A stretch of 64,000 nt of DNA from an uncultured Gammaproteobacteria bacterium (GCA_964645605.1 CAZYCE010000001.1:64063-128062); one strand, 5' to 3'; positions 23,049-42,341 are shown, counted from the first letter of the stretch. The notes: generated by a model not told the origin, from the sequence alone. Program-made: numbers and translations.

Positions 23049-23192
23049 AAAGACAGTAAAAGCAGAAAGCTCTACTCTAGGTTAAGATTAGCGCGTGAAG
23101 TATTCTGTGCAAGAAGTATCGTTTTTCACAGTTTTAATTTTCTTTTATCTCTTGCCTTTCATCTTTTATCTGTGATGTTATATAATTTGCAT

Positions 23193-25817
23193 ATGCCCGA
23201 CAGTATGTCATCAGAGAATAGACCAATTACACCAGATTTTCATATAGGAGCTCCGGCAAAACTTCCGGCGAATGAGACTTCGATGCAGGCTGCACAAAAC
23301 GAGTTTAAACCTGAGTGGAAATCTAGCATGTCTGATATAAGGATGCAGCTTGGAAATGGAGGAAAGGATGATGGGGAAGGGCTTAATATTATGGATTTGA
23401 TTAGGGCAATGTCTGGTAGGGCGGCTACTTCTGGTTTGGAAAAGTTTAGTAATGGTTTGCAGGGCATAGCTGAGACAAAAGAGAGGATGGGTGATATAGA
23501 GAATGGATTGGGGAGCAATAAATATATCGGGGACGAAAAAGATAAAAAAGAAGAGGAGCAATTGATGCTCAAGGAAAAACTAGAAAACTTGCATAATTCG
23601 CTTAAGAAAAAATACAGCACCATGCAAGAACAGTCCATTTCTGTAGTAAACGATTTATTTGTTGTCTCTGTTGACCAAAAAAAGAATGCCTATCCTTATG
23701 ACCACAGAACAGCTGAACTGACAATCAAAACAATATTGGAGACGGCACAAACCCTACAAGAAGAAGAATGGGCTGACGATCCGGAACTTTCTCTTTGGTT
23801 GAAGAGAATGGAAAGAGATGCTACATGGATGGCGGGACTTTTGCAGGTTTCTGTTGGGCAATCCGCCTCAGCACCATATTTTTTTGATGTCGTGATGCAG
23901 ATGCAAGTATTAAAGGAAAGATATAAAGCTTTTATAACTTCGGAAGATTTAAAAAATATGCACGCAAAAGAACTTCCTGGTTTGGAATTCAGTAGTGACG
24001 AAAAAGCCAAAATGGATGAAAAGGGCATTGGTCTAAAAGTTGATGATGAATATAGAACTTTAGTAGAAAATACCCCTCCGGAAAAAAGATTATTGTTCAA
24101 TAAAGAGGAAAGTGTTGGTCTAAGAGAATTGGGGGTTAAAATGATTGATTCTAGCTTTGCTATGAGAATGCGAATTGCTGCTGTCTCGCAGTCCGATTTG
24201 GCAGCACCAAACGGAGACAAAAATACTTTTATGGGTGATTATTTAAAACCTGAAGAGATTGCTTTTTTTAGAGACCTTTTATTAAGAAGAAACCCAAAGG
24301 GAGAATATTACATATTGTCTCCCCACATGGCCTCAATGGATAAAGACAAAAGAGACGCGACAGCTTATCTAGAGGCCTTACTTTTGACCAACGCGGAAGA
24401 AAGACTAAATAGCATCATTGCTAATGACTCGGTGAACAAGGAGAACTTGATTTCTGAATTAGTCGAAGATGTTAAAGAGAAAGCTACCTATAGAATTACG
24501 AACTGGAAATCAAGAGACAATGGAGATATTGTTTCTCAACTGGCCTCTTTAGTAACAAAACAGGGTTTATATGAAGATTACGCATTTTTAAACGCCTATA
24601 AATATTGTTGGGAATATACTTGGGCGATCGGCTCGGACGGCAAGTTTAAGAAAGTTGGGGTTGAGACAGCAGGCATTTATTCATATTCAGGAGATATTTA
24701 CAGTTTGTATTACATGAGAAGGGCAGCTCAGTACGATAGAAGTTCGAATTCTAGGACTCAGCTTCTTCTTCCGACGAGCAAAGCAGGCAGAAAAGAACTG
24801 GACCTAATGCCCTATGACAAAATGCCTGAATATAAACCAGGCATGCCTGGTGACCAAGATCGTTTTTTGGCCGACCAGTGGGATTTTGTTTTTGGTACTG
24901 ACCCTAAATCTAAAAAGGCTAGAGAAACCATGGGATACGTCGATATTCCGCAGCAGGTTGCTGATAAGCTTAAAAGTTGGGCCGTGTCTTGGAAAACTCC
25001 ATACAATAGTAAATATGTGGAGAATGACACTAGTTACGAATTGGTTGTTCCACATTTAATGCCACCAGGGCTAGATATAGCCTGCTTTTTAGATGCGATA
25101 CCTAGCAGTGAAACAAAATTAAACGCAGGGGGAAAGAGTGTTTGGCAGAGCATGGTTGAAGGAAAAAGGTTCTCAGAAGTAAATTGGGATATACAGGAAA
25201 ATTTACCAGTAGACAGGTGGTATGTTGATTTGGATATGGCCTCAAGGTATATGAATGTTCTGATCGGAGTTTTTGACAAAGAGAAGGATCCAATAATGGG
25301 TCTTATCAACGAAGGTCCGTCTACTCTTGCACCCAAAGAGTTTGCTAAAAGGTTAAGGCTGTCCTTCCGCGATAGCCCGAAGGGGTACCCAGAGGAATAT
25401 GAAGTTGCTTTTATCCCATTTATAGTTACACTTTCTAGTATTCAAAAATATGACCTCACCTCTGCTAGCGCGTGGCATGATGTTGATAAAAGCAATATGA
25501 CCTCCGTAGAACACTTTCTTTTGGAAATTTCTAAGTGGCAGAGAGCATTCAAATGGTTACCTTCTGATAGACCAAATCCCGCACTACTCTCACGTGATTC
25601 TGAAGGTAACGTCTTGGAATGGGATTACGGAAACACAATGGCTCTTTTGATGGAATTTTATACAGGGGTGCTTCTTCGTGTAGCTAAAAGCTCTGCCGAA
25701 GAGTCTGCCCGTATGGCATCTAAGAATTATCAAAACACCATTAGTCGTCTGAACGAAATGCCCTTCATTGGAAACGGTCTTTTGGATAGAAAGCCAAGCA
25801 AGAATTTGATACCGTAA
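23193..25817 (+). CDS. Large (~874 aa) soluble hypothetical protein, the only plus-strand gene inside the island. Possible secreted substrate/effector or regulator. The ORF-track start at 23025 is probably an upstream extension.
   Basis: Long uninterrupted ORF with normal composition. TATAAT at 23181-23186 sits 6 nt before the in-frame ATG at 23193, suggesting a leaderless transcript. No TM segments. Confidence 0.45.
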   Translation: MPDSMSSENRPITPDFHIGAPAKLPANETSMQAAQNEFKPEWKSSMSDIRMQLGNGGKDDGEGLNIMDLIRAMSGRAATSGLEKFSNGLQGIAETKERMGDIENGLGSNKYIGDEKDKKEEEQLMLKEKLENLHNSLKKKYSTMQEQSISVVNDLFVVSVDQKKNAYPYDHRTAELTIKTILETAQTLQEEEWADDPELSLWLKRMERDATWMAGLLQVSVGQSASAPYFFDVVMQMQVLKERYKAFITSEDLKNMHAKELPGLEFSSDEKAKMDEKGIGLKVDDEYRTLVENTPPEKRLLFNKEESVGLRELGVKMIDSSFAMRMRIAAVSQSDLAAPNGDKNTFMGDYLKPEEIAFFRDLLLRRNPKGEYYILSPHMASMDKDKRDATAYLEALLLTNAEERLNSIIANDSVNKENLISELVEDVKEKATYRITNWKSRDNGDIVSQLASLVTKQGLYEDYAFLNAYKYCWEYTWAIGSDGKFKKVGVETAGIYSYSGDIYSLYYMRRAAQYDRSSNSRTQLLLPTSKAGRKELDLMPYDKMPEYKPGMPGDQDRFLADQWDFVFGTDPKSKKARETMGYVDIPQQVADKLKSWAVSWKTPYNSKYVENDTSYELVVPHLMPPGLDIACFLDAIPSSETKLNAGGKSVWQSMVEGKRFSEVNWDIQENLPVDRWYVDLDMASRYMNVLIGVFDKEKDPIMGLINEGPSTLAPKEFAKRLRLSFRDSPKGYPEEYEVAFIPFIVTLSSIQKYDLTSASAWHDVDKSNMTSVEHFLLEISKWQRAFKWLPSDRPNPALLSRDSEGNVLEWDYGNTMALLMEFYTGVLLRVAKSSAEESARMASKNYQNTISRLNEMPFIGNGLLDRKPSKNLIP

Positions 25818-26068
25818 CTTTCAACCGAACAGCTTCCTTCAGAGGAGATTTTGGACAATCACAATTTACTTTTTATTTAAACGACCGTCCTTGCTCATTT
25901 GCGAAATGTAATCTTTTATCCAGTTTGGTAATACCCTCGAGACCCAAACTCGATTAGCACTCTCGGGTGACAATTTTTTATTCAGACCAGTGTAAACTTT
26001 TCTGCTTACGATTTCGTTGAGATCGGTTTTTATATTTTCTACCCCCATTTTTGTTATTATGATATTTA

Positions 26069-27685
26069 TTATTTGGGATTAGTCCTATTGGGATTAGCCC
26101 TATTATTTACATAATCTTTAAACCATTGCGGAGCCTTTGAGGATTTGCCACTGATCGCTTCCGGATTTATCCTTTTATTTAAGTTTCTATAGAAATTCTG
26201 AGCGCCAACTTCTCCTCCATATTTTCTAATTGCCGCGATCTGAGGACCCATTGTTTGCCCATAGACCCCCTTAATGGTTCCTGTGGCTTCACCAATTGCA
26301 CTTCCATAGTCAAACGGTTTGCCGGAGAAGAATGATTGGACAATCTCGGCAGCTTTTGTGATCTGACTGAATATGAAAAAACTTACAAACACCCATATCA
26401 ATTGACCCCCATTATGCTCCGCATTGGTACCTACCCCAAATGGGGGATTCCATGTGTCGGAGCCAATCATGTTAACAACCGGCCTGAAAGGAGTGGAATA
26501 GGCTTCCCTTTCGGCTTCGATGGTCATACCTTGTTTCAGGAAGAAAAAAGAAAAGAAAATCATCACAACCATGACCGGGTATATAGCCAGGTAGGACGCA
26601 ATTCGTTTTAGCCAGCTTCCAAAACCGATTTTGGAAGACACCGCACCCATCATTATTTCAAGAGGTCCTGTTGCAATGGAAATCATAAGCATGGCGAAGT
26701 TTTTGATCATCACAAATATGATTTTTAGTGACCACCAGAGTATTGGAAAGATAGAAAAAACTGAAACAAGCAGAAGCAAAATACCAGCCCACCACATGTT
26801 TCCGCTGTTGACAATTGCAAGAAACGAATTCATTACAAAGTGAACCCAGTAAGTGTACATAAGACCAAACCCGTCAAATGTATAAAGAAACTCATCAAAT
26901 AATTTTGAAGGGGCAAGAGCGCTCAGTCCGCCGGTACTGATAATGGTTGAGATAAGTCCAATAACCAAGTACATCAAATCAATTAAAAATCCGGCGATAG
27001 CATAAGAAAAGGTGATCAGAACCATAGACACGATCAATTTCGGAAGGGCAGACTGGACAGTAATTACAGTTTGAGGGTTAATTTTTACTCTAAACATAAT
27101 CATAAAAGCGATGACAATGACGGCAACCACAAGGAGACTGAAACTCAAATTTCTAAATACTCTCCAAAGGCCAACCATGGATTGTCCTACGTTAAAACCA
27201 ATTCCATTATCGGCCGCTTTGACGCTTGAGACGGGTGAAAGTTTTTGGAATAAATTATTAAAGTATCCGACACCGGAAAGCGGGCTTTTAGAAACAGTTT
27301 CTAAATAGCTTGAAGCTAAACTTTGGTTGTCGTTTGCCGTGGCTTGGGAATTAACAATTTCATCAAATTTACCCAAACAATTGTCAAAATTTATACTGCC
27401 TCCGACCATACACAAAAATAAGTCCGGATTTCCCGGGAGAAGATTGAGAAGTGTTGACGGCAAACTATAAAGAATCCATTGAACTTGGGCTGCGGTATAG
27501 CGCTCTCCAAAAATTTCACTTGATGGAGAAACGGATTCGTCATAGACTTTTCCATACCAGTCAAGAAAATTCTGGTTGTACCATGTGTTTTGTTCGGCTT
27601 TAGCTTGGAAAAGGGTAGCGGATGAAAAAAGGAGAACAATACCGATAAATGTTGAAAAAACTATTTTTTTGAGCAGGGTAGACAT
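26069..27685 (-). CDS. Polytopic membrane protein (538 aa). N-terminal signal peptide and large extracytoplasmic loop followed by ≥6 TM helices. VirB6/TrbL-like channel candidate.
   Basis: Signal-like N-terminus (IVFSTFIGIVLLFSSATLFQAKA). Multiple long hydrophobic helices in the C-terminal two thirds. VirB6 assignment is by architecture and context only. Confidence 0.45.
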   Translation of the reverse strand: MSTLLKKIVFSTFIGIVLLFSSATLFQAKAEQNTWYNQNFLDWYGKVYDESVSPSSEIFGERYTAAQVQWILYSLPSTLLNLLPGNPDLFLCMVGGSINFDNCLGKFDEIVNSQATANDNQSLASSYLETVSKSPLSGVGYFNNLFQKLSPVSSVKAADNGIGFNVGQSMVGLWRVFRNLSFSLLVVAVIVIAFMIMFRVKINPQTVITVQSALPKLIVSMVLITFSYAIAGFLIDLMYLVIGLISTIISTGGLSALAPSKLFDEFLYTFDGFGLMYTYWVHFVMNSFLAIVNSGNMWWAGILLLLVSVFSIFPILWWSLKIIFVMIKNFAMLMISIATGPLEIMMGAVSSKIGFGSWLKRIASYLAIYPVMVVMIFFSFFFLKQGMTIEAEREAYSTPFRPVVNMIGSDTWNPPFGVGTNAEHNGGQLIWVFVSFFIFSQITKAAEIVQSFFSGKPFDYGSAIGEATGTIKGVYGQTMGPQIAAIRKYGGEVGAQNFYRNLNKRINPEAISGKSSKAPQWFKDYVNNRANPNRTNPK

Positions 27686-27725
27686 ATATTTATTCTAGAC
27701 TGTTATATTAAAAAATCAAAGAGTC

Positions 27726-28334
27726 CTAAAGTAAACCATAGGTTCTTATCCAAAGGTCAGCTGTTTCTTGAATGAAAGTTCTTTGACCAAAGATAAAATA
27801 AATATTATGTATATCCACCCCTTTTGTGGCAAGCAATTTTTTAATCTGTTCAAACGAATCAATAAAAGCGACAACATTTGGATTGGTTTCTTTCGATGGA
27901 TCCTGGTTCCTAAAATTAATTCCATAAATTTCTACATGGACAAGATACTCCGGGTCGCTTGGAATGGTATAGACATTTAAGGTGGTTAACATTCCGTTAG
28001 AGTTTTTAAAACTTTCAATGTAAATTGGCAGGCTGCCTTTTAACTTATTTTTGCTTTCAATGGCGGTAATTACTTTGTCGGATGTCATATCAACCTGCCC
28101 CGCGATATTTTCGGGAGGTTTTGAGTATGAAGGTTCTACAAAATTACCGGAAACAGGAGTTGCGGAAATTGATATTGAATTTTGTTCAGCTTGACCGGCG
28201 GGCTGTGCTGAAGATTGGAGGGCTTCCCCGCTCTGATTTTTGGTGGATAATTGAATAAAGACGAGTATCAAAATTGCCACAATGGATAGAATTATGTAAA
28301 TTTTGTATTTTGAAATAAAATTTCTCATTCTCAA
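27726..28334 (-). CDS. Membrane-anchored hypothetical protein (202 aa).
   Basis: Single N-terminal TM (IYIILSIVAILILVFIQL) followed by an extracytoplasmic domain. Confidence 0.35.
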   Translation of the reverse strand: MRMRNFISKYKIYIILSIVAILILVFIQLSTKNQSGEALQSSAQPAGQAEQNSISISATPVSGNFVEPSYSKPPENIAGQVDMTSDKVITAIESKNKLKGSLPIYIESFKNSNGMLTTLNVYTIPSDPEYLVHVEIYGINFRNQDPSKETNPNVVAFIDSFEQIKKLLATKGVDIHNIYFIFGQRTFIQETADLWIRTYGLL

Positions 28335-30920
28335 TTAATGATTATATAACTCTGTTGCCACAGTTAAGGCCCCCGGTCTACCGTCGATTGGGTAAGGCAG
28401 GGGACATTTTGTGTAATCCCAGCAATAGATGATATTCATCTTAAGGTGGCTGTAGTCTATCCAGTTTACGGTATAATTATGGTCAATGCCCTCCGGCGGA
28501 GGGCAGGGACCAGAGTAAATTGAGTTAGTATCAGAACAATTACTGTTACCAGGCCCATTGTACCGCATAAGCGCTGTAATAAGCTCATTCCAAGAGTCAA
28601 TGGTACCTCCAACGGCACCCGCAAGCTGCCATCCTGCCGTTTCCGCCGATTCCAAAAGACAACCCTGTATTGGACCTCCGTTCTGAAGAGACTGGTTGGG
28701 GTTATTGCTTCCTTCGCGAAAATGGATTCCGGCCAAGACTTCGCAGGGAACACCGGTTCTTCTCTCAGCCTCTTTATAAACAGCTAAAAGATCGGAAGAA
28801 AGATAGGGAAAAATATATGTTTCAAAATAATTTTTACCCGATGCGGTTGTTTTTGGCGGCGGATTATATTTACTAAACACGCTTCCGTCGCACGTTCCGG
28901 GTGGAACTTCTTCATTAGAGCACTCCGTCGGTAGGCCTATTTCTGGAAGAGATGAAGAATTAGCAAAAGCGATAGGATCTCCATACCCTTTTGGCCTTAA
29001 GGCGGTTTGAATGCCCTTTAAAAAATACTCGGAAATTCCACCCAGGTGGGGAAGCTTTAAATCTGTATTGGCGCTTGATACGTCTATATTGGTTCCAGAA
29101 TAGGTAACGTTTATGGACCCGGGAATGTCCATTATTTGCCCGACGCTTCCTTCTGTGTTGGTTTTGGGAAAAATTCTTTTAAATATTGACATGGGGCCTG
29201 CCACCAAACGTGACCATATATTATCAACCAAAGGAATTTTGGTTTGTGTGGACATTCCGATATAAATATCTTTAGTACATTTTTGGATTTGAGAAACACA
29301 ATTATTGCCGCAAGTTGTTCCGGTTGGACAATCTTGTTGACCAAATGTGTTGGCACAAATCCAACCGGTTGGGGCACACCTTCCGCCAACAGCGTAACAA
29401 GCATTAGAAGTAGATGTGGCAGGAGATGCTTCGTATTCGCAGGTAAACTGGGCGGTATAACCTAAATTTCCTCTTATCTGACTGGCAAAAAGGTCGTCTC
29501 CGGGGTTTGAACGGACTTCTACCGAAGAGCAGGCTGAGCTTTTTGCCACTTGAGTAGGATCCCCCAATTTTCCTTCGCTCGTTGCAACAAAAGTGCTTTG
29601 GAGTAGACCACCAAGTTGATCTACCTCTCCCATGTGAGATAGGTATATTTTAGATGTTGATGAAGATTCAAAAGTTATGTCTTTAACAACGGTTCCGTTC
29701 GAGGAAGGAATTAAGGTCAAAGATTGATTGTCCATCTTAATTTCTCCCTCGACATCCTCCGTGGTGGAAAGAGGCACATAGGGAAAAAGATCCGAATACA
29801 TATTGGGAATTATTAAGTTCTCAACACATACAAGATGTTTCACTAAGGGGACAATTACACAAGTTTTACCGTGCCATTCATAATAAGCCTTGCGGTAAAG
29901 AAGTTCGCTGGCAAAAGGCTTCGCTGGCTCCCCTGGATCTGCTGTGCCATCATCCCATGGAAGTGGGGGGGTGGCCTTGTTCCATGCGGAAGATAAAGAT
30001 GTATCAATATTCCCTTGAATCATCTCCGTTACCATAGATTCGGGGAACAACTTAAGCAAACTTTCTAGGACAAATTTTATTCCGTCGGGGAAAGCGTTTG
30101 CTATAGATCTGGCCCAAGAGATCTTGTCGTCCCAGCCGTAAGCGTTACGATCAATTGATTCTGCTTTTAATCTAAAAATTTCGCCTTGCGTCTCAGCTCC
30201 ACCTCCTTTATAGCATTCAATTGGCTTAACGTATCCAACATTCAAGAGATTTCTGATTGGACCGCCGCGTGTGGCACAGGCAACAATTTGATTGTGATTT
30301 GTTTCTCTGGCATTTTCGATTGTCTTAATTCTTTGGGCGTTTAGAATGGCATCGGGCAGGAGTTTTTGCAGAGGTCCCGAAAGATTAACTGTACTATAGT
30401 CATCACTTTTTGAGCTGCCATATTCGGCTTGATTTATAACCCCATTTAAATACCAACTGGCATAGCTATTCATTTTTTCCTGATCACTAAGATTATCTGC
30501 CGCGTTTGTTGAATTCGTCACATCTTCGGTATTGCCCATAATTGGAAGTTCTGCACCGTTTAAATTAATACCAATAGGTTTATTAACCTCTACAGTGTAA
30601 TCACAATATATTTTGTTGCCGGTGGTTGTGCAGCTGTCGGTCTGGTCTCCCGGATATTGAACTTCGACAGTGTCTTTTATTGTTAGGTCGTTTCCGCAAA
30701 AGGTAGCCGTGTTTGTATCATATGTTACGCAAGGTCTTGCCCTGTATGGTCTTAAAGAGTTAAATTCAGGATTTATTACCTCGTTACAGCTGACTATAGC
30801 TGGTAGAGGAGTTTGTGCGCAGATATTCCTTGGGGATATGAGATTATAACCAAGAACCGAAAATACGAATAAACAAGAAATAAGTAAAGTACTTTTTCTC
30901 GGACAGTGCATAATAATCAC
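28335..30920 (-). CDS. Large (861 aa) secreted Cys-rich protein. Possible cell-wall hydrolase or adhesin associated with the secretion/pilus apparatus.
   Basis: N-terminal signal peptide (LLISCLFVFSVLGYNLISP). Many Cys residues in CxxC/CxC clusters. The C-terminal region (…GVPCEVLAGIHFREGSNNPNQ…) is globular. No confident family match from memory. Confidence 0.4.
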   Translation of the reverse strand: MIIMHCPRKSTLLISCLFVFSVLGYNLISPRNICAQTPLPAIVSCNEVINPEFNSLRPYRARPCVTYDTNTATFCGNDLTIKDTVEVQYPGDQTDSCTTTGNKIYCDYTVEVNKPIGINLNGAELPIMGNTEDVTNSTNAADNLSDQEKMNSYASWYLNGVINQAEYGSSKSDDYSTVNLSGPLQKLLPDAILNAQRIKTIENARETNHNQIVACATRGGPIRNLLNVGYVKPIECYKGGGAETQGEIFRLKAESIDRNAYGWDDKISWARSIANAFPDGIKFVLESLLKLFPESMVTEMIQGNIDTSLSSAWNKATPPLPWDDGTADPGEPAKPFASELLYRKAYYEWHGKTCVIVPLVKHLVCVENLIIPNMYSDLFPYVPLSTTEDVEGEIKMDNQSLTLIPSSNGTVVKDITFESSSTSKIYLSHMGEVDQLGGLLQSTFVATSEGKLGDPTQVAKSSACSSVEVRSNPGDDLFASQIRGNLGYTAQFTCEYEASPATSTSNACYAVGGRCAPTGWICANTFGQQDCPTGTTCGNNCVSQIQKCTKDIYIGMSTQTKIPLVDNIWSRLVAGPMSIFKRIFPKTNTEGSVGQIMDIPGSINVTYSGTNIDVSSANTDLKLPHLGGISEYFLKGIQTALRPKGYGDPIAFANSSSLPEIGLPTECSNEEVPPGTCDGSVFSKYNPPPKTTASGKNYFETYIFPYLSSDLLAVYKEAERRTGVPCEVLAGIHFREGSNNPNQSLQNGGPIQGCLLESAETAGWQLAGAVGGTIDSWNELITALMRYNGPGNSNCSDTNSIYSGPCPPPEGIDHNYTVNWIDYSHLKMNIIYCWDYTKCPLPYPIDGRPGALTVATELYNH

Positions 30921-30937
30921 ATTATATCAGCTTGGAC

Positions 30938-31222
30938 TTATGGAGAAATCATTAGATTAAACTGTGTGACATCAACACCTGTAATGTTACTTATAATTAC
31001 AAGGATTATATAAGAAACCAAAATTACAATAAGGCCTATTACCGCGGAAGTAATTGTTTTTTTTGCTCCCTCTGCCGCTTTTGGATCGCCACCCGAAGTG
31101 ATAAACCCGAAACCTCCTATTAAAAGAAGGATGAAGAAAACTATTCCGGCAAGTCCTAATGCATAACCAATCACTCTTTGTAGGATACCGCCCAAATCAG
31201 ATATTTTTGCTACATCATCCAC
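30938..31222 (-). CDS. Pilin-like two-TM small protein (TrbC/VirB2-like, T4SS pilin family), paralog 8 of the tandem array.
   Basis: 94 aa. Helix, then loop ITSGGDPKAAEGAKKTITSAVIGLIVIL, then a second helix. The motif is shared with seven neighbouring genes. Confidence 0.55.
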   Translation of the reverse strand: MDDVAKISDLGGILQRVIGYALGLAGIVFFILLLIGGFGFITSGGDPKAAEGAKKTITSAVIGLIVILVSYIILVIISNITGVDVTQFNLMISP

Positions 31223-31260
31223 GAAAACATTCTAACCTAAACAATTATTTTGAGCAATTA

Positions 31261-31602
31261 TCAAAGATTAATAGTCGGGATCGCGAGGTTGAAGATGTCT
31301 ACGTGGAAGATAGTGTTTATAAGGGCAACTATGGCCCAAGCCGCAAAGACTATAACAAGGCCAACCAAAGCCGCCGTAATCTGATTCCTAGCAGCCTCTG
31401 TTTTGGCCTTATCACCGCCGGAGGCGATCCAGCGAATCCCACCGATAACCAAAATAAAGAAAAATATTATAGCGGCAACAATCACAACAAGCCTTATCCC
31501 TACAGAGATAATGCTTGGAATAGTTAAATTGCCCAATGCGCTAAACTGAGAATCGGAAGACGGTTGAAGGTTGATAGTGTCCTCCGCAAGTAATTTCAAC
31601 AT
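31261..31602 (-). CDS. Pilin-like two-TM small protein (TrbC/VirB2-like), paralog 7.
   Basis: 113 aa. IASGGDKAKTEAARNQITAALVGLVIVF motif between two hydrophobic helices. Confidence 0.55.
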   Translation of the reverse strand: MLKLLAEDTINLQPSSDSQFSALGNLTIPSIISVGIRLVVIVAAIIFFFILVIGGIRWIASGGDKAKTEAARNQITAALVGLVIVFAAWAIVALINTIFHVDIFNLAIPTINL

Positions 31603-31623
31603 ATTTATATTATATACGTATTA

Positions 31624-31983
31624 TTAAATAATTAGCTTACCGATGTCAATACTCAGAATGGAAACGTGGAAAATGTCTTGTATAAGTCCGATTATTGCAA
31701 AAACAGCAAAGAGAATAACAAGACCCACCAACGCGCTGGTAATCCTACTCCTTGCTTTTCCGACTGCCTCTTTATCTCCTCCTGAGGAAATCCACTGAAT
31801 TGCCCCCACCACTAAGTTGAAAAAGAAAACAATCGCACCGACTATCAAAATCAAGGTAACTGCCATCGGAAGAAATTTCTGAAGGAAGCCAATAGAGTTG
31901 GGGTCTTGTCCCAAGGTTGACGGAAGCACGGGGTTTACAATTGAACCCTGAGCCAAATTTTGAGCGATTAAATTATTTAACAT
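31624..31983 (-). CDS. Pilin-like two-TM small protein (TrbC/VirB2-like), paralog 6.
   Basis: 119 aa. ISSGGDKEAVGKARSRITSALVGLVILF motif. Confidence 0.55.
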   Translation of the reverse strand: MLNNLIAQNLAQGSIVNPVLPSTLGQDPNSIGFLQKFLPMAVTLILIVGAIVFFFNLVVGAIQWISSGGDKEAVGKARSRITSALVGLVILFAVFAIIGLIQDIFHVSILSIDIGKLII

Positions 31984-32357
31984 TATTGGCTGTTCGTGAT
32001 TACCCCGAAAAGTGCACCGATATTAAGAATATTTGGAATCCCGATAATTTTGCCTATTAAGTTGATTATAACCAGGGCCAAAATTACAACAATCAAACCG
32101 ATGGCCCCCGTTGTGATTTTTTTCCTGGCGCTTTCCAAGGCTTGCTTATCTCCTCCGGAACCAATGATACTTATCGCCCCGGTTATAAAAGTGAACACAA
32201 ACCAAATAATTGCAACAATTGTCATAACTCCGATTGCCATAGAAATTATTGAAGAAAGTTTTGAGACACCTTGCCCTTCTTCCGTTATGTTGCCAAGCGG
32301 ACCAAGACCTTTAAAGCCTCCCTCGGGTGCAATTGAAATGTCGGTTAGTAATCTCAT
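31983..32357 (-). CDS. Pilin-like two-TM small protein (TrbC/VirB2-like), paralog 5.
   Basis: 124 aa. IGSGGDKQALESARKKITTGAIGLIVVIL motif. The overlapping plus-strand ORF 31996-32376 is judged spurious. Confidence 0.55.
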   Translation of the reverse strand: MRLLTDISIAPEGGFKGLGPLGNITEEGQGVSKLSSIISMAIGVMTIVAIIWFVFTFITGAISIIGSGGDKQALESARKKITTGAIGLIVVILALVIINLIGKIIGIPNILNIGALFGVITNSQ

Positions 32358-32370
32358 GCTTTCAATTTCA

Positions 32371-32883
32371 TTATAAAGTCGGAATCGTCGGGTTGAGTAT
32401 AAAGTCCCACCTTCCGAATATCAACTGTCCGAAAATAGCTGCTAGAACAAATGCCGCCGCTGCAACCACAAGCCCGAGAGCCGTTTGCCAAATTTTGGCC
32501 CACGCACCGGCAACCTTTTTAGGGTCGTCTCCGGCAGAAAGAAAGGCATACCCGGCAAGAATAAAATTGAAAAGGGCATAGATGCCCGCCCCAATAATTA
32601 AAACCCAGATTATTCTTTGAATTAAATTCCCTATCCCAGTTCCCGGGTCTCCCGAAACTGCCACAGGGGGATTAATAGTTCCGAAAGGGTTATTGTTGGG
32701 CGCCGCATTCGAACCCGGTTTACAACAGTGTGCCACACAACGTTCCCCCATGCCGCACTCGGTATCAAGGGTGCATTCAGGAGGATCACACGCAGCAATT
32801 ACACTATTGACATGTAATATCAAACCGATAAAAACCCCTAAGGAAATGTAGAATATTTTCCTAATTTGCATTTTTTTAGACAA
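32371..32883 (-). CDS. Pilin-like module fused to an N-terminal secreted Cys-rich domain (170 aa), paralog 4.
   Basis: Signal peptide, then CDPPECTLDTECGMGERCVAHCCKPG, then C-terminal LSAGDDPKKVAGAWAKIWQTALGLVVAAAAFVL two-helix pilin module. Confidence 0.5.
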   Translation of the reverse strand: MSKKMQIRKIFYISLGVFIGLILHVNSVIAACDPPECTLDTECGMGERCVAHCCKPGSNAAPNNNPFGTINPPVAVSGDPGTGIGNLIQRIIWVLIIGAGIYALFNFILAGYAFLSAGDDPKKVAGAWAKIWQTALGLVVAAAAFVLAAIFGQLIFGRWDFILNPTIPTL

Positions 32884-33196
32884 CCCCAGGAATCCCCAGC
32901 AATTGTCCTATTAATTTTACTATCCAATAGGATGCAAATACAATAACAAAACCAACTACGGCTGATGTAATGGTTTTTTTGGACTTCTCTGCACTTTGAG
33001 GATCGTTTTTGCCGGCCGAACTAATGAGTCCAATTCCTCCCAGAATAAAAAAGAAAAGAAGGGTAATTCCTGCAAGGACAAAGGCGGCATTTAAGAAAAC
33101 TGAAACAATACTGCTTATTCCGGTGGGGCTTTGTAAAGCGCCGGGTCCCGAATTGCCAAAAAAAGCTTCGCCTATAGAAAAAGCAAGTTCATTCAC
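32876..33196 (-). CDS. Pilin-like two-TM small protein (TrbC/VirB2-like), paralog 3.
   Basis: 106 aa. ISSAGKNDPQSAEKSKKTITSAVVGFVIVF motif. Confidence 0.55.
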   Translation of the reverse strand: MNELAFSIGEAFFGNSGPGALQSPTGISSIVSVFLNAAFVLAGITLLFFFILGGIGLISSAGKNDPQSAEKSKKTITSAVVGFVIVFASYWIVKLIGQLLGIPGVV

Positions 33197-33242
33197 AACA
33201 CCATTTTAGTATAGAGTTTTACTTAAGACAAGTGAGTGGATT

Positions 33243-33575
33243 TTATTTTACACCGAAGATTTGACCAAAAAGTGTGGATTCGAGGCCAAAAAGCTGTCCG
33301 AATAGCTGGACAATTGTGAAAGCCACTATTACGATAACAAATCCTATTACCGCATTAGTAATTTTTGCTTGTGCTGCCTGAGCAGCTTTAGGATCCCCTC
33401 TGGAAAGCATAAATTGGAAACCTCCAATAATGAGGTAAATTAAAAGAGCGATTCCGGCAGCACCGAAAATATAGGGCAATACAGTTCCGATTATTTCCCC
33501 AAGAGTAGTATTTGTTCCAAAATTTGCATTTGGGAATGCTCCTTTTTGTATGGATTCAAGATTTTGCGCAAGCAT
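33243..33575 (-). CDS. Pilin-like two-TM small protein (TrbC/VirB2-like), paralog 2.
   Basis: 110 aa. LSRGDPKAAQAAQAKITNAVIGFVIVIV motif. Confidence 0.55.
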   Translation of the reverse strand: MLAQNLESIQKGAFPNANFGTNTTLGEIIGTVLPYIFGAAGIALLIYLIIGGFQFMLSRGDPKAAQAAQAKITNAVIGFVIVIVAFTIVQLFGQLFGLESTLFGQIFGVK

Positions 33576-33577
33576 TT

Positions 33578-34423
33578 TTATTTATTGAAACCAAATTGGT
33601 CTAATCCAAGTATATCAACTCCGATAAAGTTAAGTATAAATATTGAGAATATAAGAAGTATTAACCCTGCAATCGCTGATGTTAAGAGTTCTTGTCCGGC
33701 CTTCATTCGTTCCGGATTGCCGGATGCCGTCATAATCATAAATCCTGCATAAAGCATCAAAGCGAATGCAATACCACTCCCGATACCGACGGCCCACTTG
33801 AGAAGTGCGCCTAAAAAATCATTTGTGGAGCCAAAAACAGGGAAACAGCCAATTGCAGTTTTTATTCCTTGTCCGGAAGTGCCACATGTAATATCGAGTT
33901 TATTTTTTAAATCTACACAAATACCCTCGTCGTTTAGCGAGGAACCGGCACAACAAGTTTGACCAGGACCTGGCTTACCTTTCGATACACAGTTGTGATA
34001 TGGGTCAGTGCCATTCTTTATACACATCAGACCTGATCCGTAATTAAACTCAAAAGTTCCGGTACAACACGGTTTACTTGATGTTGGAACACCACCCTCT
34101 TTTGTGCATCCTCCGGAATTTGATTCTATGCAGTCACAAGTTACAGAAAGATCATAAAGAGAACTACCAGACACGTGACATACGGGTGTAAAGTCTTCGG
34201 AAGGGCAATTGTCAGAGATAACTATTGGATCCGGGTTGGTAAAGCTTCGAATAGTACAAACACATTCAGGGTCCTCGGCAAGTATGGGTTTCGGAGTTAA
34301 GAACAAAAAACTAAAAACAAAAGCACAAACAATAGAAACGGCCTGCAAATATTTTCTCATTCCATTTATTCTAAAACAAAAGGGGTAAAAGTAAAAGAAC
34401 AGTGCTGGTATAATAAATGGCAA
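33578..34423 (-). CDS. Secreted Cys-rich extracellular domain (about 20 Cys) fused to a C-terminal pilin-like two-helix module (281 aa). Candidate pilus tip/adhesin subunit. First gene of the pilin array.
   Basis: N-terminal signal. CVCTIRSF…CPSEDFTPVCHV…CDCIESNSGGCTKEGG…CCTG…CIKNG…CVSKG…CCAG…CVD…CGTSGQG. C-terminus …GSGIAFALMLYAGFMIMTASGNPERMKAGQELLTSAIAGLILLIFSIFIL matches the array motif. Confidence 0.5.
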   Translation of the reverse strand: MPFIIPALFFYFYPFCFRINGMRKYLQAVSIVCAFVFSFLFLTPKPILAEDPECVCTIRSFTNPDPIVISDNCPSEDFTPVCHVSGSSLYDLSVTCDCIESNSGGCTKEGGVPTSSKPCCTGTFEFNYGSGLMCIKNGTDPYHNCVSKGKPGPGQTCCAGSSLNDEGICVDLKNKLDITCGTSGQGIKTAIGCFPVFGSTNDFLGALLKWAVGIGSGIAFALMLYAGFMIMTASGNPERMKAGQELLTSAIAGLILLIFSIFILNFIGVDILGLDQFGFNK

Positions 34424-36102
34424 TGGTCATAAAATTCAATATTTGCCAATTCGGCCTGCGGCTTAGTCTTTCGATGGTTCTTCTGGCTATCGTGTTTTCT
34501 TTTTTAACCTTCACTACGATCAACGCGCAAGATTGCGGAACGGATCTTGATTGTCAGATAGCCCAAATTCAAAGGGATATTGATGCACTTTCTCCGGCTC
34601 AAGAAAAAAACAAACAGGATTTGGCGTCTCTTAACAAGCAAATAGCCGATTTGAATTTTAAAATTGCAAAACTTTCCTCACAACTTAAAACCCTTGAAGA
34701 CCAGATTTCTGCCCGAGAAGAAGACTTATCCTACACAAGGGCAATATTTGAAGAAAAAGCCAGTAGTCACTATACGTTTTTACGACTTTACGATCCGATT
34801 ACTCCGTTTATTTTTTCGGATAGTGCTTCTCAGGCATTCCAGGAGATTATTCTGAGACAAAAAGCGGCTGATGCCGACAGAAATACAATGGAGAAGTACG
34901 CTTCTGATTTGATATCACTTAACGAAGATAAAGTAAATCTAGTTAAAAACAAAGCAAGTATTTCGTCTTTGCAGTCTCAGCTTGCGGAAAAACAGAAATT
35001 TTTAGTGGCAGAAGTGGCAAAAGTAGATACATATCTTTCCTCACTTTCCGCAAAGCAACAAGAACTTTTAGCTGCCAAAAGCGGCAATTTTATCGCAAGT
35101 GTAGGTGACAGCGAGCTTGCAGATGATTATAAGGCTTCAATAAAAGGATTCAGAGAAGCTGCTCCGTCCGGCTCATTCGCTGTTTTTTCTTTTGGTGCCT
35201 ATACCCACAGGAAAGGAATGAGTCAATATGGTGCAAGAGGCAGGGCTCAAAACGGAAAAAAATATGAAGAGATACTAAAGGCATATTACGGAAAGGAAAC
35301 CGTGAAAAAGGATACTGGTGGAACGATTAGTGTTGCAGGATTGGGAAATGTAAATTTTGAAGATTACTATTTGATGGGTATTGCGGAGATGCCGTCAAGC
35401 TGGCACCCGGAAGCATTAAAAGCTCAGGCTGTGGCCGCCCGAACATATGCTTATAGATATAAAATAGCGGGCACACAAATTTGTACAACGGAGGCTTGTC
35501 AGGTATTTAGAAAATCGAAAGCGGACAACCCCCCAGCCGAATGGAAAAAGGCCGTAGAAGATACCCGCGGCCAAGTTTTAGAAGATGTTGTGACATATTA
35601 CTCATCGACGTCGGGTGGGTATTTGACCACTTCAGGTTGGGATACAACCGATGGGGGTGGAGGTGCAAATTTCTTTGACAAAAGTTATGAAAAAATCGGG
35701 GGTTCGCCTTGGGCATATAAGGCCTGGTACAGGCAAGGCTATACTGCGAGCGGAGCAACCTGTGGACAAGATGACCCATGGCTTAATAATGAAGAGTTTA
35801 CTGACATTGTAAACGCAGCGATTGTTCTTAAAAATGGTTCCGACGACAGGGTAACTTCCACATCTACTTCGTGTTGGGGTGGCAATCCATATAGCTATGC
35901 AGAGCTTAGGTCAAAAGGCGGAGTTGGTACAGTAACTAGCGTCTCGGTAATTCAGGGGAATGGTACAACCAATGAAGTTGTAATTAATGGTTCAATTCAC
36001 TTAACAGGGGCGGAATTCAAACAAGCATTTAATTTAAGAGCTCCAGGCTACATTATGATTCCTCAAAAAGGCTTCGCGTTTTTTAATATCGAGAAGAAAT
36101 AG
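34417..36102 (+). CDS. Secreted SpoIID/LytB-domain peptidoglycan-remodelling protein with an N-terminal coiled-coil region (561 aa).
   Basis: GMSQYGARGRAQNGKKYEEILKAYYG matches the SpoIID/LytB signature (GMSQ.GA). N-terminal signal/TM, then a heptad-rich Q/L/K region. Confidence 0.6.
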   Translation: MAMVIKFNICQFGLRLSLSMVLLAIVFSFLTFTTINAQDCGTDLDCQIAQIQRDIDALSPAQEKNKQDLASLNKQIADLNFKIAKLSSQLKTLEDQISAREEDLSYTRAIFEEKASSHYTFLRLYDPITPFIFSDSASQAFQEIILRQKAADADRNTMEKYASDLISLNEDKVNLVKNKASISSLQSQLAEKQKFLVAEVAKVDTYLSSLSAKQQELLAAKSGNFIASVGDSELADDYKASIKGFREAAPSGSFAVFSFGAYTHRKGMSQYGARGRAQNGKKYEEILKAYYGKETVKKDTGGTISVAGLGNVNFEDYYLMGIAEMPSSWHPEALKAQAVAARTYAYRYKIAGTQICTTEACQVFRKSKADNPPAEWKKAVEDTRGQVLEDVVTYYSSTSGGYLTTSGWDTTDGGGGANFFDKSYEKIGGSPWAYKAWYRQGYTASGATCGQDDPWLNNEEFTDIVNAAIVLKNGSDDRVTSTSTSCWGGNPYSYAELRSKGGVGTVTSVSVIQGNGTTNEVVINGSIHLTGAEFKQAFNLRAPGYIMIPQKGFAFFNIEKK

Positions 36103-40395: not shown

Positions 40396-40401
40396 ACCGT
40401 G

Positions 40402-40483
40402 CGGTAGGTACAGGGGTCGAACCTGTTAGAGCTTGCGCTCACGAGTTTTCAAGACTCGCGCGTTACCGTCCCGCCCACCTACC
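40402..40483 (-). tRNA. tRNA-Ser (anticodon TGA, reads UCA/UCN), long variable arm.
   Basis: Minus-strand sequence GGTAGGTGG…CGAGT-CTTGAAA-ACTCG…long extra arm…ACAGGTTCGACCCCTGT-ACCTACC-G. Anticodon loop CT-TGA-AA. Confidence 0.8.
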
Positions 40484-40489
40484 ACTGAG

Positions 40490-40575
40490 CGGAGGGGGTG
40501 AGATTTGAACTCACGCGAGCCTTGCGGCTCAGAGGTTTAGCGAACCTCCGCAATGGACCGCTATGCGACCCCTCC
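40490..40575 (-). tRNA. tRNA-Ser (anticodon GCT, reads AGY), long variable arm. Only 6 nt from the preceding tRNA-Ser.
   Basis: Minus-strand GGAGGGGTCGCATAGCGGTCCATTGCG-GAGGT-TCGCTAA-ACCTC-TGAGCCGCAAGGCTCGC-GTGAGTTCAAATCTCAC-CCCCTCC-G. Anticodon GCT. Confidence 0.75.
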
Positions 40576-41562
40576 ATATTTGTATTTATTTAGCCTCTGA
40601 TTACTACTACCAACAATATTGAGATATTTTTCTATCTCATGGCTATTATACAGCCAAACCTTCTTATTCACTACGTTCTTGATAATTTTCGGGTGAAACT
40701 TTAATTCTTTGAGTGTTTCGTAAACAAAGGTCAAAAGAGGAACGGAATAGTTGGTGAAGTTGGCTTTTGGGTATATGTATATTTTCCCATTTACTTTATA
40801 CCTGTGGATGAAGATTCCACCATCAGTATCCATCAAACCACGCAAACAGCGAATTTTATATTTTTGGTTCGATTTTATCCAATCTGGTACGTCCACTTGG
40901 TTTTTAACCTTATTACCCGGGACTAATCCAAGTTTTGTTAGAAGTTTGGTTAAGTTGGCTCCGTTATAATAAATTTCCAATGCATTGGCATTATTTCTTT
41001 TCCTGACTTTGGGCTCGTGTCCAAACAAAGATTTGCATAGTTTTACTACATAGTGCGAATAATCCAAATCCTTAATACTGTTTAATGTTATGCGTATTTG
41101 TAATCTTCCCATGCTCCCATCACCAAGCATAATCCCCATGAACTCAGCAAGGTTCGAAGAGCGTTTCGGTGTGTAAAATGTAGCGATTGGTGATATTGAC
41201 CCTGATTTTCTGAGGATTTCTAGAGTTTTTAATCCTCCTTTTTGTCTACCTTCTTTTGTACCTGGATTTCCATATTTTTGTTTGTAGGCAATCCCACCTC
41301 GTTTTCCAATCCGCGATCTATTCGTTTTCCATCTGTTTTCCAATACCCCAACCTTTTCAGGTAAAATGACATTAAACTTGCTGCCTAATATAAGTACGGC
41401 ATTTTTTGAAATTGACATCTTTTCATTTTTCCAATCAGTAAAACTTCTAGGGGAAACACTTACCAAATTAGCCAATTTATTGGTGCCTAAACCGCTTTTT
41501 TGAATCACTGTTTTGAGGAATATCTTTTGATGGTTGGGCAAGAATTTTAGGTGATTTTCCAT
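40561..41562 (-). CDS. Free-standing LAGLIDADG-family homing endonuclease (two LAGLIDADG-like motifs) with an N-terminal HTH-like region. Its 3' end overlaps tRNA-Ser(GCT) by ~15 nt.
   Basis: FMGIMLGDGSMGRLQIRITL and LRGLMDTDGGIFIH motifs are separated by ~100 aa, as in double-motif LAGLIDADG enzymes. The TAG stop lies inside the tRNA 5' end. Confidence 0.65.
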   Translation of the reverse strand: MENHLKFLPNHQKIFLKTVIQKSGLGTNKLANLVSVSPRSFTDWKNEKMSISKNAVLILGSKFNVILPEKVGVLENRWKTNRSRIGKRGGIAYKQKYGNPGTKEGRQKGGLKTLEILRKSGSISPIATFYTPKRSSNLAEFMGIMLGDGSMGRLQIRITLNSIKDLDYSHYVVKLCKSLFGHEPKVRKRNNANALEIYYNGANLTKLLTKLGLVPGNKVKNQVDVPDWIKSNQKYKIRCLRGLMDTDGGIFIHRYKVNGKIYIYPKANFTNYSVPLLTFVYETLKELKFHPKIIKNVVNKKVWLYNSHEIEKYLNIVGSSNQRLNKYKYGGVA

Positions 41563-41623
41563 ATCCGCTAGACGACACCTCCATGATATACTTTTCCAGA
41601 TATAAAATGTATACTACGCATGT

Positions 41624-42160
41624 ATGGAATCTGCCAATAGCACATTAAATGTTGAGCCACAGGCGGTGGTTGTCAGGCGTGAACCTGAACGCGATTTGGT
41701 TACCTGGACGGCGCCAGCGCGGCCATTTAAAAGGTACGGCAGAAAGTTTTATGTAACTATTTTTTCATTTGTAGGAATAATCAGCATAATTCTTTTTATA
41801 GCCGAAGGTGCCATACCGGTAGTGCTCTTAGTTTCACTTATCTTTTTGTTTTATGTTCTTTCTACGGTTTCACCGGAGAATATTGAGTATAAAATAACCA
41901 ATAAGGGAGTCAAAATCGCAGGCAAGGAAACACCCTGGCAAAATATAATCAGGTTTTGTTTTTTGTCAAAAACAGGAGGCGAAGTTTTGGTTTTTGATGC
42001 GGCAACGTTTCCCGGAAGAATAGAGCTTGTCATAAATCCCGAGGACAAAGATAGATTGAAAAAAGAAATTTCTGCATACACTCCTTATGAAGAAATTAAG
42101 CCTTCTTTTTTGGATAAGATTGTGGACTGGGTTGTTAAAAAGCTGCCGGAGAGTGAGTAG
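41624..42160 (+). CDS. Membrane hypothetical protein (178 aa, two TM helices).
   Basis: Hydrophobic hairpin FYVTIFSFVGIISIILFIAEGAIPVVLLVSLIFLFYVL. Confidence 0.4.
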   Translation: MESANSTLNVEPQAVVVRREPERDLVTWTAPARPFKRYGRKFYVTIFSFVGIISIILFIAEGAIPVVLLVSLIFLFYVLSTVSPENIEYKITNKGVKIAGKETPWQNIIRFCFLSKTGGEVLVFDAATFPGRIELVINPEDKDRLKKEISAYTPYEEIKPSFLDKIVDWVVKKLPESE

Positions 42161-42182
42161 GCACAACTCCGAATAAGCATCT

Positions 42183-42255: not shown

Positions 42256-42259
42256 CTAA

Positions 42260-42341
42260 GGAGGATGGGCAGGACGGTAATGCGTTGGTTTCGAAAACCA
42301 ATTCTCGTAAGGGATAGCAGGTTCGACTCCTGCATCCTCCG
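42260..42341 (+). tRNA. tRNA-Ser (anticodon CGA, reads UCG), long variable arm.
   Basis: GGAGGAT…TTGGT-TTCGAAA-ACCAA…GCAGGTTCGACTCCTGC-ATCCTCC-G. Anticodon loop TT-CGA-AA. Confidence 0.75.

Follow-up and report, generated by a model that had tools for sequence, protein, structure and literature searches.

Do eight related genes for small membrane proteins, set one behind another beside a type IV secretion system (T4SS), encode the parts of one structure or a stock of alternative subunits? The question is raised by a stretch of DNA of 64,000 nucleotides (the window), in which a preliminary description had noticed eight consecutive minus-strand genes at 30938-34423 with the layout of TrbC/VirB2-type pilins. 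Eight ORFs were found at exactly these positions and are called g1 to g8 here (Table 1). All eight are intact, neither truncated nor promoterless cassettes were seen in the array, and no further pilin-like copy was present elsewhere in the 64-kb window. The longest ORFs of g5 (32371-32883, 170 aa) and g8 (33578-34423, 281 aa) begin with TTG codons at 32883 and 34423, respectively; the ATG codons at 32871 (166 aa) and 34360 (260 aa) are likelier starts. On an identical contig (L001), genes called independently gave 260 aa for g8 and 150 aa for g5, with g6 skipped. The genes are spaced by 2-46 nt rather than the 3-40 nt first reported, while the single 1-nt overlap holds, between the stop of g4 and the start of g3. 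No intergenic terminators were found in the array, which is consistent with the proposal that the genes form one operon.

Table 1. Positions of the array genes and of neighbouring features in the window
Feature	Position	Strand	Description
dnaA	12952-14313		Adjacent to T4SS cluster
dnaN	14528-15640		Adjacent to T4SS cluster
M23 membrane protein	16683-19427	minus	914 aa; four TM segments; C-terminal M23 peptidoglycan endopeptidase domain (PF01551)
VirB4-like ATPase	19430-21295	minus	NF045971 364.5 bits (cut-off 325); PF19044; PDB 4ag5 E 4e-44
TrsD/TraD-like	21264-21980	minus	NF041427 TrsD E 3.2e-7; VirB4_plasma E 4.5e-11; resembles N-terminal part of VirB4
PrgI/VirB3-like	21981-23048	minus	PF12666 PrgI 29 bits (cut-off 27); additional C-terminal domain
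d538	26069-27685	minus	Polytopic, about 8 TM (TM scan); syntenic in 44 loci
d202	27726-28334	minus	Bitopic membrane protein, one N-terminal TM
d861	28335-30920	minus	Secreted, 861 aa, 29 Cys; follows g1 downstream after a 17-nt gap
g1	30938-31222	minus	94 aa, GTG start; last and shortest copy; PF18895 38.1 bits
g2	31261-31602	minus	113 aa; PF18895 34.7 bits; ortholog identity 74%, best-kept position across species
g3	31624-31983	minus	119 aa; PF18895 26.0 bits; nearest sibling g2 (51% identity)
g4	31983-32357	minus	124 aa; PF18895 23.2 bits; leave-one-out profile 67.8 bits
g5	32371-32871	minus	166 aa from ATG; PF18895 19.7 bits; leave-one-out 46.2 bits (shuffles <=5.4)
g6	32876-33196	minus	106 aa; PF18895 37.8 bits; positional orthologs in 29 genomes
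g7	33243-33575	minus	110 aa; SRGDPK loop; most canonical pilin-like copy; PF18895 44.7 bits
g8	33578-34360	minus	260 aa from ATG; first gene of array; PF18895 32.6 bits; N to C: Sec signal peptide, 17-Cys ectodomain, C-x(n)-TAIGC loop, PF18895 two-TM module
SpoIID-domain protein	34417-36102	plus	PF08486 73 bits; divergent from g8

Two Pfam pilin families had been named as possible matches. PF18895 (T4SS_pilin) was the top Pfam match of all eight copies, with E-values from 1.4e-11 to 9.4e-4; g1, g2, g6, g7 and g8 exceeded its gathering cut-off of 26.6 bits, and g3, g4 and g5 fell just under it. PF04956 (TrbC/VirB2) gave no match to any of the eight at E<=1. The two-TM hairpin of about 70 residues that makes up the PF18895 module was seen in the hydropathy scan and in the AF2 model of g7, and the 218 homologs of g7 were all PF18895 proteins. 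Pairwise identities among the eight paralogs were 22-51% by BLASTP, whose E-values are inflated by the tiny database. Each copy was also scored against a profile of its seven siblings, with 200 composition-matched shuffles as a control. Scores ranged from 35.6 to 87.6 bits, and the best shuffle reached no more than 10.8 bits; the three copies below the PF18895 cut-off scored 46-75 bits against their siblings. Relatedness therefore exceeds hydrophobic composition, and the eight genes are confirmed as genuine PF18895 paralogs.

The relationship to classical pilins is a different matter. Comparison by hhalign with five aligned, genuine members of VirB2/TrbC gave probabilities of 0.2-1% (E 0.06-0.3, not significant), profile searches of PDB sequences returned no pilin, and fold searches yielded only generic helical hairpins. 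The NCBIfam model NF045849 (Mbov_0395 pilin-like conjugal transfer) was matched by g7 with 48.6 bits (cut-off 40), the other seven copies scoring 17.6-31.5 bits, under the cut-off. Given the missing PF04956 match and the non-significant profile-profile comparison, 'VirB2-type' describes layout: the layout and the T4SS setting of the original claim stand, but do not amount to demonstrated homology to classical VirB2/TrbC.

The hydropathy scan placed two TM segments in each of the eight modules, so that the predicted architecture, two hydrophobic helices flanking a short basic loop, was seen in every copy. The loop contains 3-4 K/R residues in seven copies and 2 in g8. The AF2 model of g7 shows a short N-terminal helix followed by a hairpin of two helices, 25-57 and 62-95, with pLDDT >90 within the hairpin. 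The SGGD motif thought to be common to the array proved exact in only four copies (g1-g4), the remaining four having SAGDD, SSAGKND, SRGD and ASGN, and the only residues invariant across all eight modules are the initial Met and one Gly in the second motif. N-terminal signal peptides occur in g5 and g8 only, followed by Cys-rich ectodomains with 6 and 17 Cys, respectively, and Cys is confined to these N-domains. The other six products (g1-g4, g6 and g7) have a polar N-tail of 16-43 aa with neither signal peptide nor Cys, and their ORFs are closed upstream by stop codons. Direct reading of the sequences revealed no class III (prepilin peptidase) leader in any of the eight. From the positive-inside rule, each product would be a helical hairpin inserted in the cytoplasmic membrane, its N- and C-termini outside and the basic GD(P/K)...K/R loop on the cytoplasmic side. 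This termini-outward topology is supported by the restriction of Sec signal peptides to the copies with long N-domains.

The array belongs to a chromosomal, origin-proximal cluster encoding a monoderm-type T4SS. The genes for the PrgI, TrsD, VirB4, M23 and 8-TM proteins lie on the same strand as the array, all within 15 kb, and six genes separate g1 from virB4, whose product also scores 255 bits on VirB4_plasma. The C-terminal domain of d861 is lysozyme-like or lytic-transglycosylase-like and its N-terminal ~650 aa match no known fold; we regard it as a candidate VirB1 analogue. Neither Pfam nor NCBIfam yielded a match for d202, a candidate VirB8-like protein by position, and d538, for which no family or PDB match was obtained, is a candidate divergent VirB6. 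The SpoIID gene is a conserved neighbour: of 79 related loci searched, 64 have it next to the pilin genes. Relaxase and coupling protein (T4CP) domains were absent from all scanned ORFs of the window, and no VirB5-type tip protein was recognised. The surroundings consist of chromosomal housekeeping and T4SS genes and are not those of a prophage. The closest relatives are Woesebacteria/Microgenomates MAGs, and the organism would be a Woesebacteria-like (Microgenomatia) Patescibacterium.

The complete g8-to-g1 order was found, collinear and with one-to-one orthologs, in 29 species-level genomes, and synteny of the array with T4SS genes is kept in dozens of genomes. Across the 29, orthologs are 54-74% identical, compared with 16-47% for paralogs within a genome, and 239 of the 240 sequences have their nearest neighbour at the same array position. 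Since neighbours group by position and not by genome, there has been no concerted evolution or gene conversion. Each position also has its own conserved N-terminal signature; the signal peptide and 6-Cys N-domain of g5 are lineage-specific, being common to L004 only and absent from the other 28 orthologs. The pilins have median identities of 49-71% to the window, against 68% for SmpB, 49% for SpoIID, 35% for d861 and 36% for d538, so that their rate of evolution is about as low as that of SmpB. This pattern argues that the eight copies are an old, fixed set. Strict one-to-one orthology and slow evolution in 29 species contradict the suggestion of a reservoir of variable major subunits, and favour the other suggestion made at the outset, a multi-subunit assembly, which would comprise eight non-redundant members.

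Within the array only g8 diversifies, combining a conserved pilin module and a signal peptide with a hypervariable Cys-rich ectodomain. The module is 71% identical among orthologs, a signal-peptide-like N-terminus is present in 30 of 30, and a C-x(3,14)-[TS]A[IV]GC loop is kept in 28 of 30. Across the same 30 orthologs, insert size varies from 32 to 188 aa and Cys content from 2 to 20, and only 6 of 136 pairs of long N-domains could be aligned. Expansion in copy number is likewise restricted to the g8 position (L032, L043, L044, L037 and L055).

Tandem pilin arrays of this kind have already been published (PMC12102498, PMC10633639, PMC12857230). One study describes 441 arrays, each with 2-11 genes for VirB2-like pilins, in 383 Patescibacteria assemblies, most abundantly in Microgenomatia and Saccharimonadia, with a mean identity of 25% between copies and a maximum of 54% (PMC12102498). 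Its definition of an array is at least two tandem pilin genes, no more than 20 CDS from a Patescibacteria-type virB4, with low inter-copy identity. The eight copies of the window, six genes from virB4 and 22-51% identical, agree with this definition, and they share with the published arrays PF18895, tandem layout, VirB4, TrsD, PrgI and a chromosomal dnaA/dnaN-proximal site lacking a relaxase, with no relaxase or coupling protein in the scanned ORFs. The window differs in being a Woesebacteria-type locus with eight copies; its SpoIID and lysozyme-like neighbours do not appear in the main text of PMC12102498, which stresses variability and suggests versatility in host range, whereas g1-g7 are here conserved and collinear. 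What is added to the published arrays is that positions g1-g7 form a conserved ortholog set, with variability confined to g8. In Southlakia epibionticum the pilin series SEML1_0006-0019 is essential by Tn-seq (PMC10633639).

VirB2, TrbC and TraA resemble the window copies in small size, in two helices with a short basic loop, in T4SS location and in the short N-terminal helix before the hairpin of the predicted model, but neither sequence nor profile comparison detected any similarity; those systems have one major pilin, whereas the window has eight conserved paralogs in a monoderm with no recognised VirB5-type tip protein. The long, cleaved Sec signal peptide typical of VirB2/TrbC/TraA is missing in six of the eight copies, an observation that speaks against the explanation favoured below. 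Mycoplasma ICEs (Mbov_0395/MMCAP2_0565, NF045849) likewise have an MPF-FATA-like monoderm-type T4SS with a related VirB4, but there the gene is single copy and part of a conjugating mobile element, in contrast to eight chromosomal copies with no relaxase or coupling protein. PMC12102498 cites the VirB2 paralogs of Bartonella and Anaplasma/Rickettsiales, which are also tandem and belong to host-interaction T4SSs; antigenic variation is their presumed function, whereas in the window each copy is conserved from species to species, with no sign of turnover. As a functional analogy only, the pilin sets of type IV pili and of type II secretion pseudopili likewise consist of small, divergent subunits, fixed in number and order and encoded together, of which one has an extra domain, but their family and assembly machinery are unrelated and the window copies have no class III leader.

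We favour, with moderate confidence, the explanation that the array is a fixed, ancient PF18895 set of a Patescibacterium T4SS, whose members are non-redundant subunits of one heteromeric structure. The analysis shows that the copies belong to the family, lie in a T4SS context, carry topology signals, are collinear orthologs that evolve slowly, and include a g8 with a variable head; it is conservation that suggests heteromeric assembly. The paralogs would not be interchangeable alternatives but parts that the PrgI-TrsD-VirB4-VirB6-like machinery assembles into a single pilus or conduit, either at the surface or spanning the envelope, and the opening for it in the peptidoglycan would be made by d861, the M23 protein and SpoIID. 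In such a structure g1-g7 would make the shaft or base, and g8 would be a specialised surface-exposed subunit whose pilin anchor is constant and whose disulfide-rich head is hypervariable and probably touches the host cell; both an extracellular filament and contact with a host are inferred. The set may be likened, by analogy, to the combinations of major and minor pilins in other filament systems. A stronger version, in which the T4SS filament or conduit is obligatorily heteromeric, with g1-g7 as shaft or base, and a swappable g8 head sets which host cell is tapped, is a tentative and doubtful extension. If true, this 'conjugative-type' pilus would be the first made of several kinds of subunit, and in a single-membrane bacterium; a T4SS-made pilus has been observed in no Patescibacterium or other monoderm (PMC12857230). 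That observation, the undetectable homology to structurally characterised conjugative pilins and the generic hairpins from the fold searches weigh against the favoured explanation. As an alternative to heteromeric assembly, the eight conserved paralogs could act at different times or places.

The hairpins might instead stay in the membrane, forming or lining a translocation channel or chaperoning its assembly, with no pilus, after the model of the small two-TM proteins of wall-less or monoderm conjugation; g8 would then display its surface domain from the membrane. Every copy matches the Mycoplasma ICE 'Mbov_0395' family (only g7 over the cut-off), TM proteins of these elements are read as a conjugative channel module (PMC6030558) with no pilus known there (PMC12857230), and pili are generally absent from Gram-positive T4SSs (PMC10633639); the lack of detectable similarity to solved pilins and of signal peptides in six copies points the same way. 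We nevertheless consider this rather unlikely. The roles of small membrane components are already taken by the PrgI/VirB3-like protein and the polytopic VirB6 candidate, eight extra conserved hairpins beside three neighbouring peptidoglycan hydrolases better suit a wall-crossing structure, and specialists annotate such proteins as VirB2-like on structural grounds (PMC10633639, PMC12857230).

A reservoir of antigenically or functionally variable major subunits, swapped or differentially expressed according to host, is improbable and, for g1-g7, already largely refuted. It was also raised in PMC12102498 by analogy with the Bartonella and Anaplasma VirB2 paralogs, and would agree with the great divergence of the paralogs and with the strongly variable, at times multiplied, g8 position. 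The slow, collinear one-to-one orthology of g1-g7, the grouping by position, the signature at each position and the intactness of all copies speak against it, and variation is limited to the ectodomain of one gene. Short two-TM proteins do acquire spurious similarity easily, the more so with inflated BLAST E-values, and unrelated small membrane proteins such as holins, or chance hydrophobic resemblance, were considered for this reason. The shuffle control is decisive here: together with the PF18895 matches, the absence of any PHROG match (holin and phage families) at E<=0.01, T4SS synteny in dozens of genomes and housekeeping and T4SS neighbours, it has already refuted this reading, which we regard as extremely improbable.

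To return to the stronger version of the heteromeric reading, the array is repeatedly interrupted at two junctions, between g7 and g6 and between g2 and g1. On that reading these breaks would imply three assembly sub-modules, consisting of g8 and g7, of g6 to g2, and of g1 with d861.

Eight adjoining minus-strand ORFs of 94, 113, 119, 124, 170, 106, 110 and 281 aa were confirmed in the pilin-like array and are designated g1 to g8, g8 being transcribed first and g1 last. For g5 and g8, translation probably begins at the ATG codons at 32871 and 34360, giving proteins of 166 and 260 aa. An independent annotation of an identical contig agreed on 260 aa for g8, gave 150 aa for g5 and skipped g6. 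In a MAFFT alignment the last ~90 residues of all eight proteins fell into one module, bearing out the shared architecture proposed in the preliminary description. The module consists of a hydrophobic helix, a loop around (S/A)GGD(P/K), a basic stretch, and a (K/R)x-I-T-x-A-x-x-G sequence leading into a second hydrophobic helix. By hydropathy, every module has two TM segments, with 2-4 Lys/Arg residues in the inter-helix loop (3-4 in seven copies, 2 in g8). AlphaFold2, supplied with 22 homologs, modelled g7 as a short helix followed by a helical hairpin (residues 25-57 and 62-95, pLDDT >90 in the hairpin). The SGGD motif ascribed to all copies was exact in four only, the other four deviating from it; likewise, the 1-nt overlap is real and occurs once, but the gaps span 2-46 nt and not 3-40 nt.

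Pairwise BLAST E-values among the eight were discounted (tiny database, composition correction off), and a shuffle test was used instead. Each copy scored 35.6-87.6 bits against an HMM of the other seven, and the best of 200 shuffles reached at most 10.8 bits. As these scores far exceed those of same-residue shuffles, the relationship is not an artefact of composition. A search of the 64-kb window with the module HMM gave no ninth copy. For all eight the top Pfam match was PF18895, 'Type IV secretion system pilin', five being above the gathering cut-off and three slightly under it, which supports the earlier assignment to T4SS pilin-type proteins. All eight further matched the NCBIfam model of the 'pilin-like conjugal transfer protein' from Mycoplasma ICE, g7 alone above cut-off. 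A holin or phage origin was ruled out by a PHROG search that gave no match. A link to solved conjugative pilins could not be shown: profile searches of PDB sequences (A1, A2) returned only GPCRs and designed proteins, and hhalign comparison with genuine VirB2 of Ti and other plasmids was non-significant. The best such alignment, at E 0.056, paired topologically equivalent regions and was not counted as evidence.

Features of the window (coordinates are window positions)
Feature	Position	Strand	Remarks
yidC, dnaA, dnaN	11162-15640
T4SS and pilin cluster	15646-34423	minus	right of origin
Membrane protein with M23 endopeptidase domain		minus	downstream of g1
VirB4 ATPase		minus	downstream of g1; 364 bits, CD1110-type model; PDB 4ag5, 4e-44
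TrsD-like protein		minus	downstream of g1
PrgI/VirB3-like protein		minus	downstream of g1
930-aa gene	23025-25817	plus	interrupts T4SS run; one N-terminal TM; no family match
d538	26069-27685	minus	downstream of g1; ~8 TM
d202	27726-28334	minus	downstream of g1; bitopic protein
d861	28335-30920	minus	downstream of g1; lysozyme-like; secreted, 861 aa, 29 Cys
g1-g8	30938-34423	minus	pilin-like array
g2-g7	31222-33575	minus	N-termini without signal peptide, g5 excepted
SpoIID-domain gene	34417-36102	plus	divergent from g8
tRNA cluster	40401-43493		four tRNA-Ser and one tRNA-Arg within 3 kb
LAGLIDADG-type endonuclease ORF	40561-41562	minus	adjoins tRNA-Ser(gct)
Group I intron (Rfam)	51232-51530	plus	66 bits, above gathering score
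ORF overlapping the intron	51447-51872	minus

Identification of d538 as VirB6 and of d202 as VirB8 is a guess from position, and sequence searches gave it no support. Neither a relaxase nor a coupling protein was detected among the scanned ORFs of the window. The T4SS run directly adjoins dnaN and dnaA, and the remaining genes of the window are housekeeping genes (tsaD/E, leuS-like, yidC, smpB/tmRNA, dnaG, rpoD, pgk, tpi, efp). The nearest relatives of g7 and d861 were found in Woesebacteria/Microgenomates MAGs. These relatives, together with the housekeeping and dnaA-dnaN setting, therefore indicate that the window is origin-adjacent chromosomal DNA of a Microgenomatia-class Patescibacterium. 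The yidC, dnaA and dnaN genes and a cumulative GC-skew minimum at ~10-12 kb put the origin of replication at ~12-13 kb; the T4SS and pilin cluster is therefore transcribed head-on to replication.

The 930-aa protein is encoded by the sole plus-strand gene in the T4SS cluster; 9 related genomes have a weakly conserved counterpart (23-52% identity) at the corresponding position. The SpoIID-domain gene begins only 56 nt from the g8 ATG, and 64 of the 79 related loci, in several Patescibacteria classes, have it in divergent orientation to g8. With the M23 protein and the lysozyme-like d861, it makes three peptidoglycan-remodelling enzymes around the array. The main text of a 2025 T4SS survey (PMC12102498) contains 0 occurrences of the SpoIID neighbour.

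The eight copies were then compared between species. Patescibacteria account for much of bacterial diversity and spend their lives attached to other microorganisms. In the only species in which this has been tested, the T4SS, its pilins included, is essential for the attached way of life (PMC10633639), and the Southlakia pilin series was found by Wang et al. to be essential for epibiotic growth (PMC10633639). A search of 3,035 Patescibacteria genomes by Quinonero-Coronel et al. (PMC12102498), using PF18895 and PF04956, yielded 441 'VirB2 arrays', each with 2-11 pilin genes; these came from 383 assemblies, notably of Microgenomatia and Saccharimonadia, and had a mean identity inside arrays of 25%. 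Those arrays adjoin a monoderm-type (MPF-FATA-like) T4SS, often near dnaA and usually with no relaxase (PMC12102498), and the present locus is a further example of them. The arrays themselves are thus already published; what is added here is a conserved, collinear eight-part set with a single hypervariable subunit.

Species-representative loci around relatives of g7 were fetched (79 in all), and 474 pilin-like ORFs from these loci and two contigs (L001, L002) were classified with the module HMM and by BLAST against the eight window copies. The complete g8-to-g1 order was present in 29 genomes, and further genomes had partial arrays at contig ends. Over 87 module columns, orthologs at the same position were 54-74% identical between species, and paralogs within a genome 16-47%; 239 of 240 sequences had their nearest neighbour at the same position in another genome. 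The median identity of the pilins to the window copy was 49-71%, and that of flanking genes in the same genomes was 68% (SmpB), 49% (SpoIID), 35% (d861) and 36% (d538). Each position also retained its own N-terminal signature: IQxxAFP in g7, NPFGxIxPP in g5, APxGGFKGFGxLG in g4, I(T/K)NPxLG in g3 and INLQP in g2. Ordered one-to-one orthology, positional nearest neighbours and slow change therefore indicate old duplications in the absence of concerted evolution, and every copy is judged from these comparisons to be under purifying selection. These results contradict the suggestion that the array is a reservoir of variable major subunits, and the conserved positional orthologs run against the published analogy with antigenic variation. 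Cross-species conservation instead favours the other reading offered at the outset, a multi-subunit assembly in which the eight copies would be non-redundant parts.

Variability is concentrated ahead of the g8 module, which is itself one of the most conserved modules (71%). Each of the 30 g8 orthologs began with a signal peptide, and 28 of 30 kept a C-x(3,14)-[TS]A[IV]GC loop directly before the module. The insert between these two elements ranged from almost nil to ~130 aa, and 2-20 Cys preceded the module; among the long forms (n=17), only 6 of 136 pairs could be aligned at E<1e-3. Where copy number had increased, the gain was at the g8 position (L032, L043, L044, L037 and the Saccharibacteria locus L055), and in WWE3 and Saccharibacteria loci, too, long ectodomain-bearing pilins lead and short copies follow. 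Within the window, signal peptides were found on g5 and g8 only, each leading into a Cys-rich ectodomain (6 Cys in g5, 17 in g8); the other copies (g1-g4, g6, g7) have a short polar N-tail free of Cys. The signal peptide and 6-Cys domain of g5 were gained in the window lineage and L004 only. Every copy with a long N-domain had a signal peptide, and no copy without such a domain did. Because signal peptides track long N-domains in this way, there is internal support for a topology in which both termini face outward (N-out/C-out) and the basic loop is cytoplasmic.

From the observed family membership, T4SS context, hairpin topology signals, fixed and slowly changing ortholog set and single variable head, we infer that the VirB4/TrsD/PrgI/VirB6-like machinery would extract the eight hairpins from the membrane, and that these would be built into one heteromeric wall-crossing structure. 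In VirB2-like helical filaments, as known from F- and T-pilus structures, a ~150-aa head on every subunit would be hard to pack. For this reason g8 would be a sparse or terminal subunit, making contact with the host. The main rival is that all eight proteins stay in the membrane as channel components, which fits the relationship to the Mycoplasma ICE protein, the lack of signal peptides on six of the eight, and the unsuccessful attempts to link PF18895-type copies to VirB2. For Woesebacteria, hypotheses are narrowed to a conserved eight-part kit of pilin copies with a variable surface head on one part; such a kit points toward a composite machine, one subunit of which is dedicated to host recognition, and away from immune-evasion-style variation.

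Promoters, terminators and attenuators were scanned for possible control of stoichiometry within the array. No intergenic terminators were found, intergenic RNAs folded no better than shuffles, and internal promoter-like sites were not in excess (21 versus 16.1 +/- 3.8 in shuffles). The widest gaps in the window array are g7|g6 (46 nt) and g2|g1 (38 nt). Insertions of 1-8 kb split related arrays at g7|g6 (L014, L029, L045, L062, L070, L077), and others lie at g2|g1 (L010, L036, L039, L043). These recurrent breakpoints suggest three sub-modules, namely g8 with g7, g6 to g2, and g1 with the downstream genes.

Among g2-g7 and their orthologs, N-termini without a signal peptide have a common M-x(0-3)-L-(L/I/T)-A-(Q/E/D) motif similar to the cleavage-site end of g8 signal peptides (...LA|Q/E). 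The motif could be what remains of a signal peptide since lost, or could serve as a site for processing or recognition. Around the group I intron, no rRNA or tRNA gene was called. Many related MAGs (L003-L005, L015, L019, L026, L027 and others) carry the record titles 'uncultured Gammaproteobacteria' or 'Pseudomonadales'; since they contain the Patescibacteria-type locus in full synteny, these titles look like mislabels.
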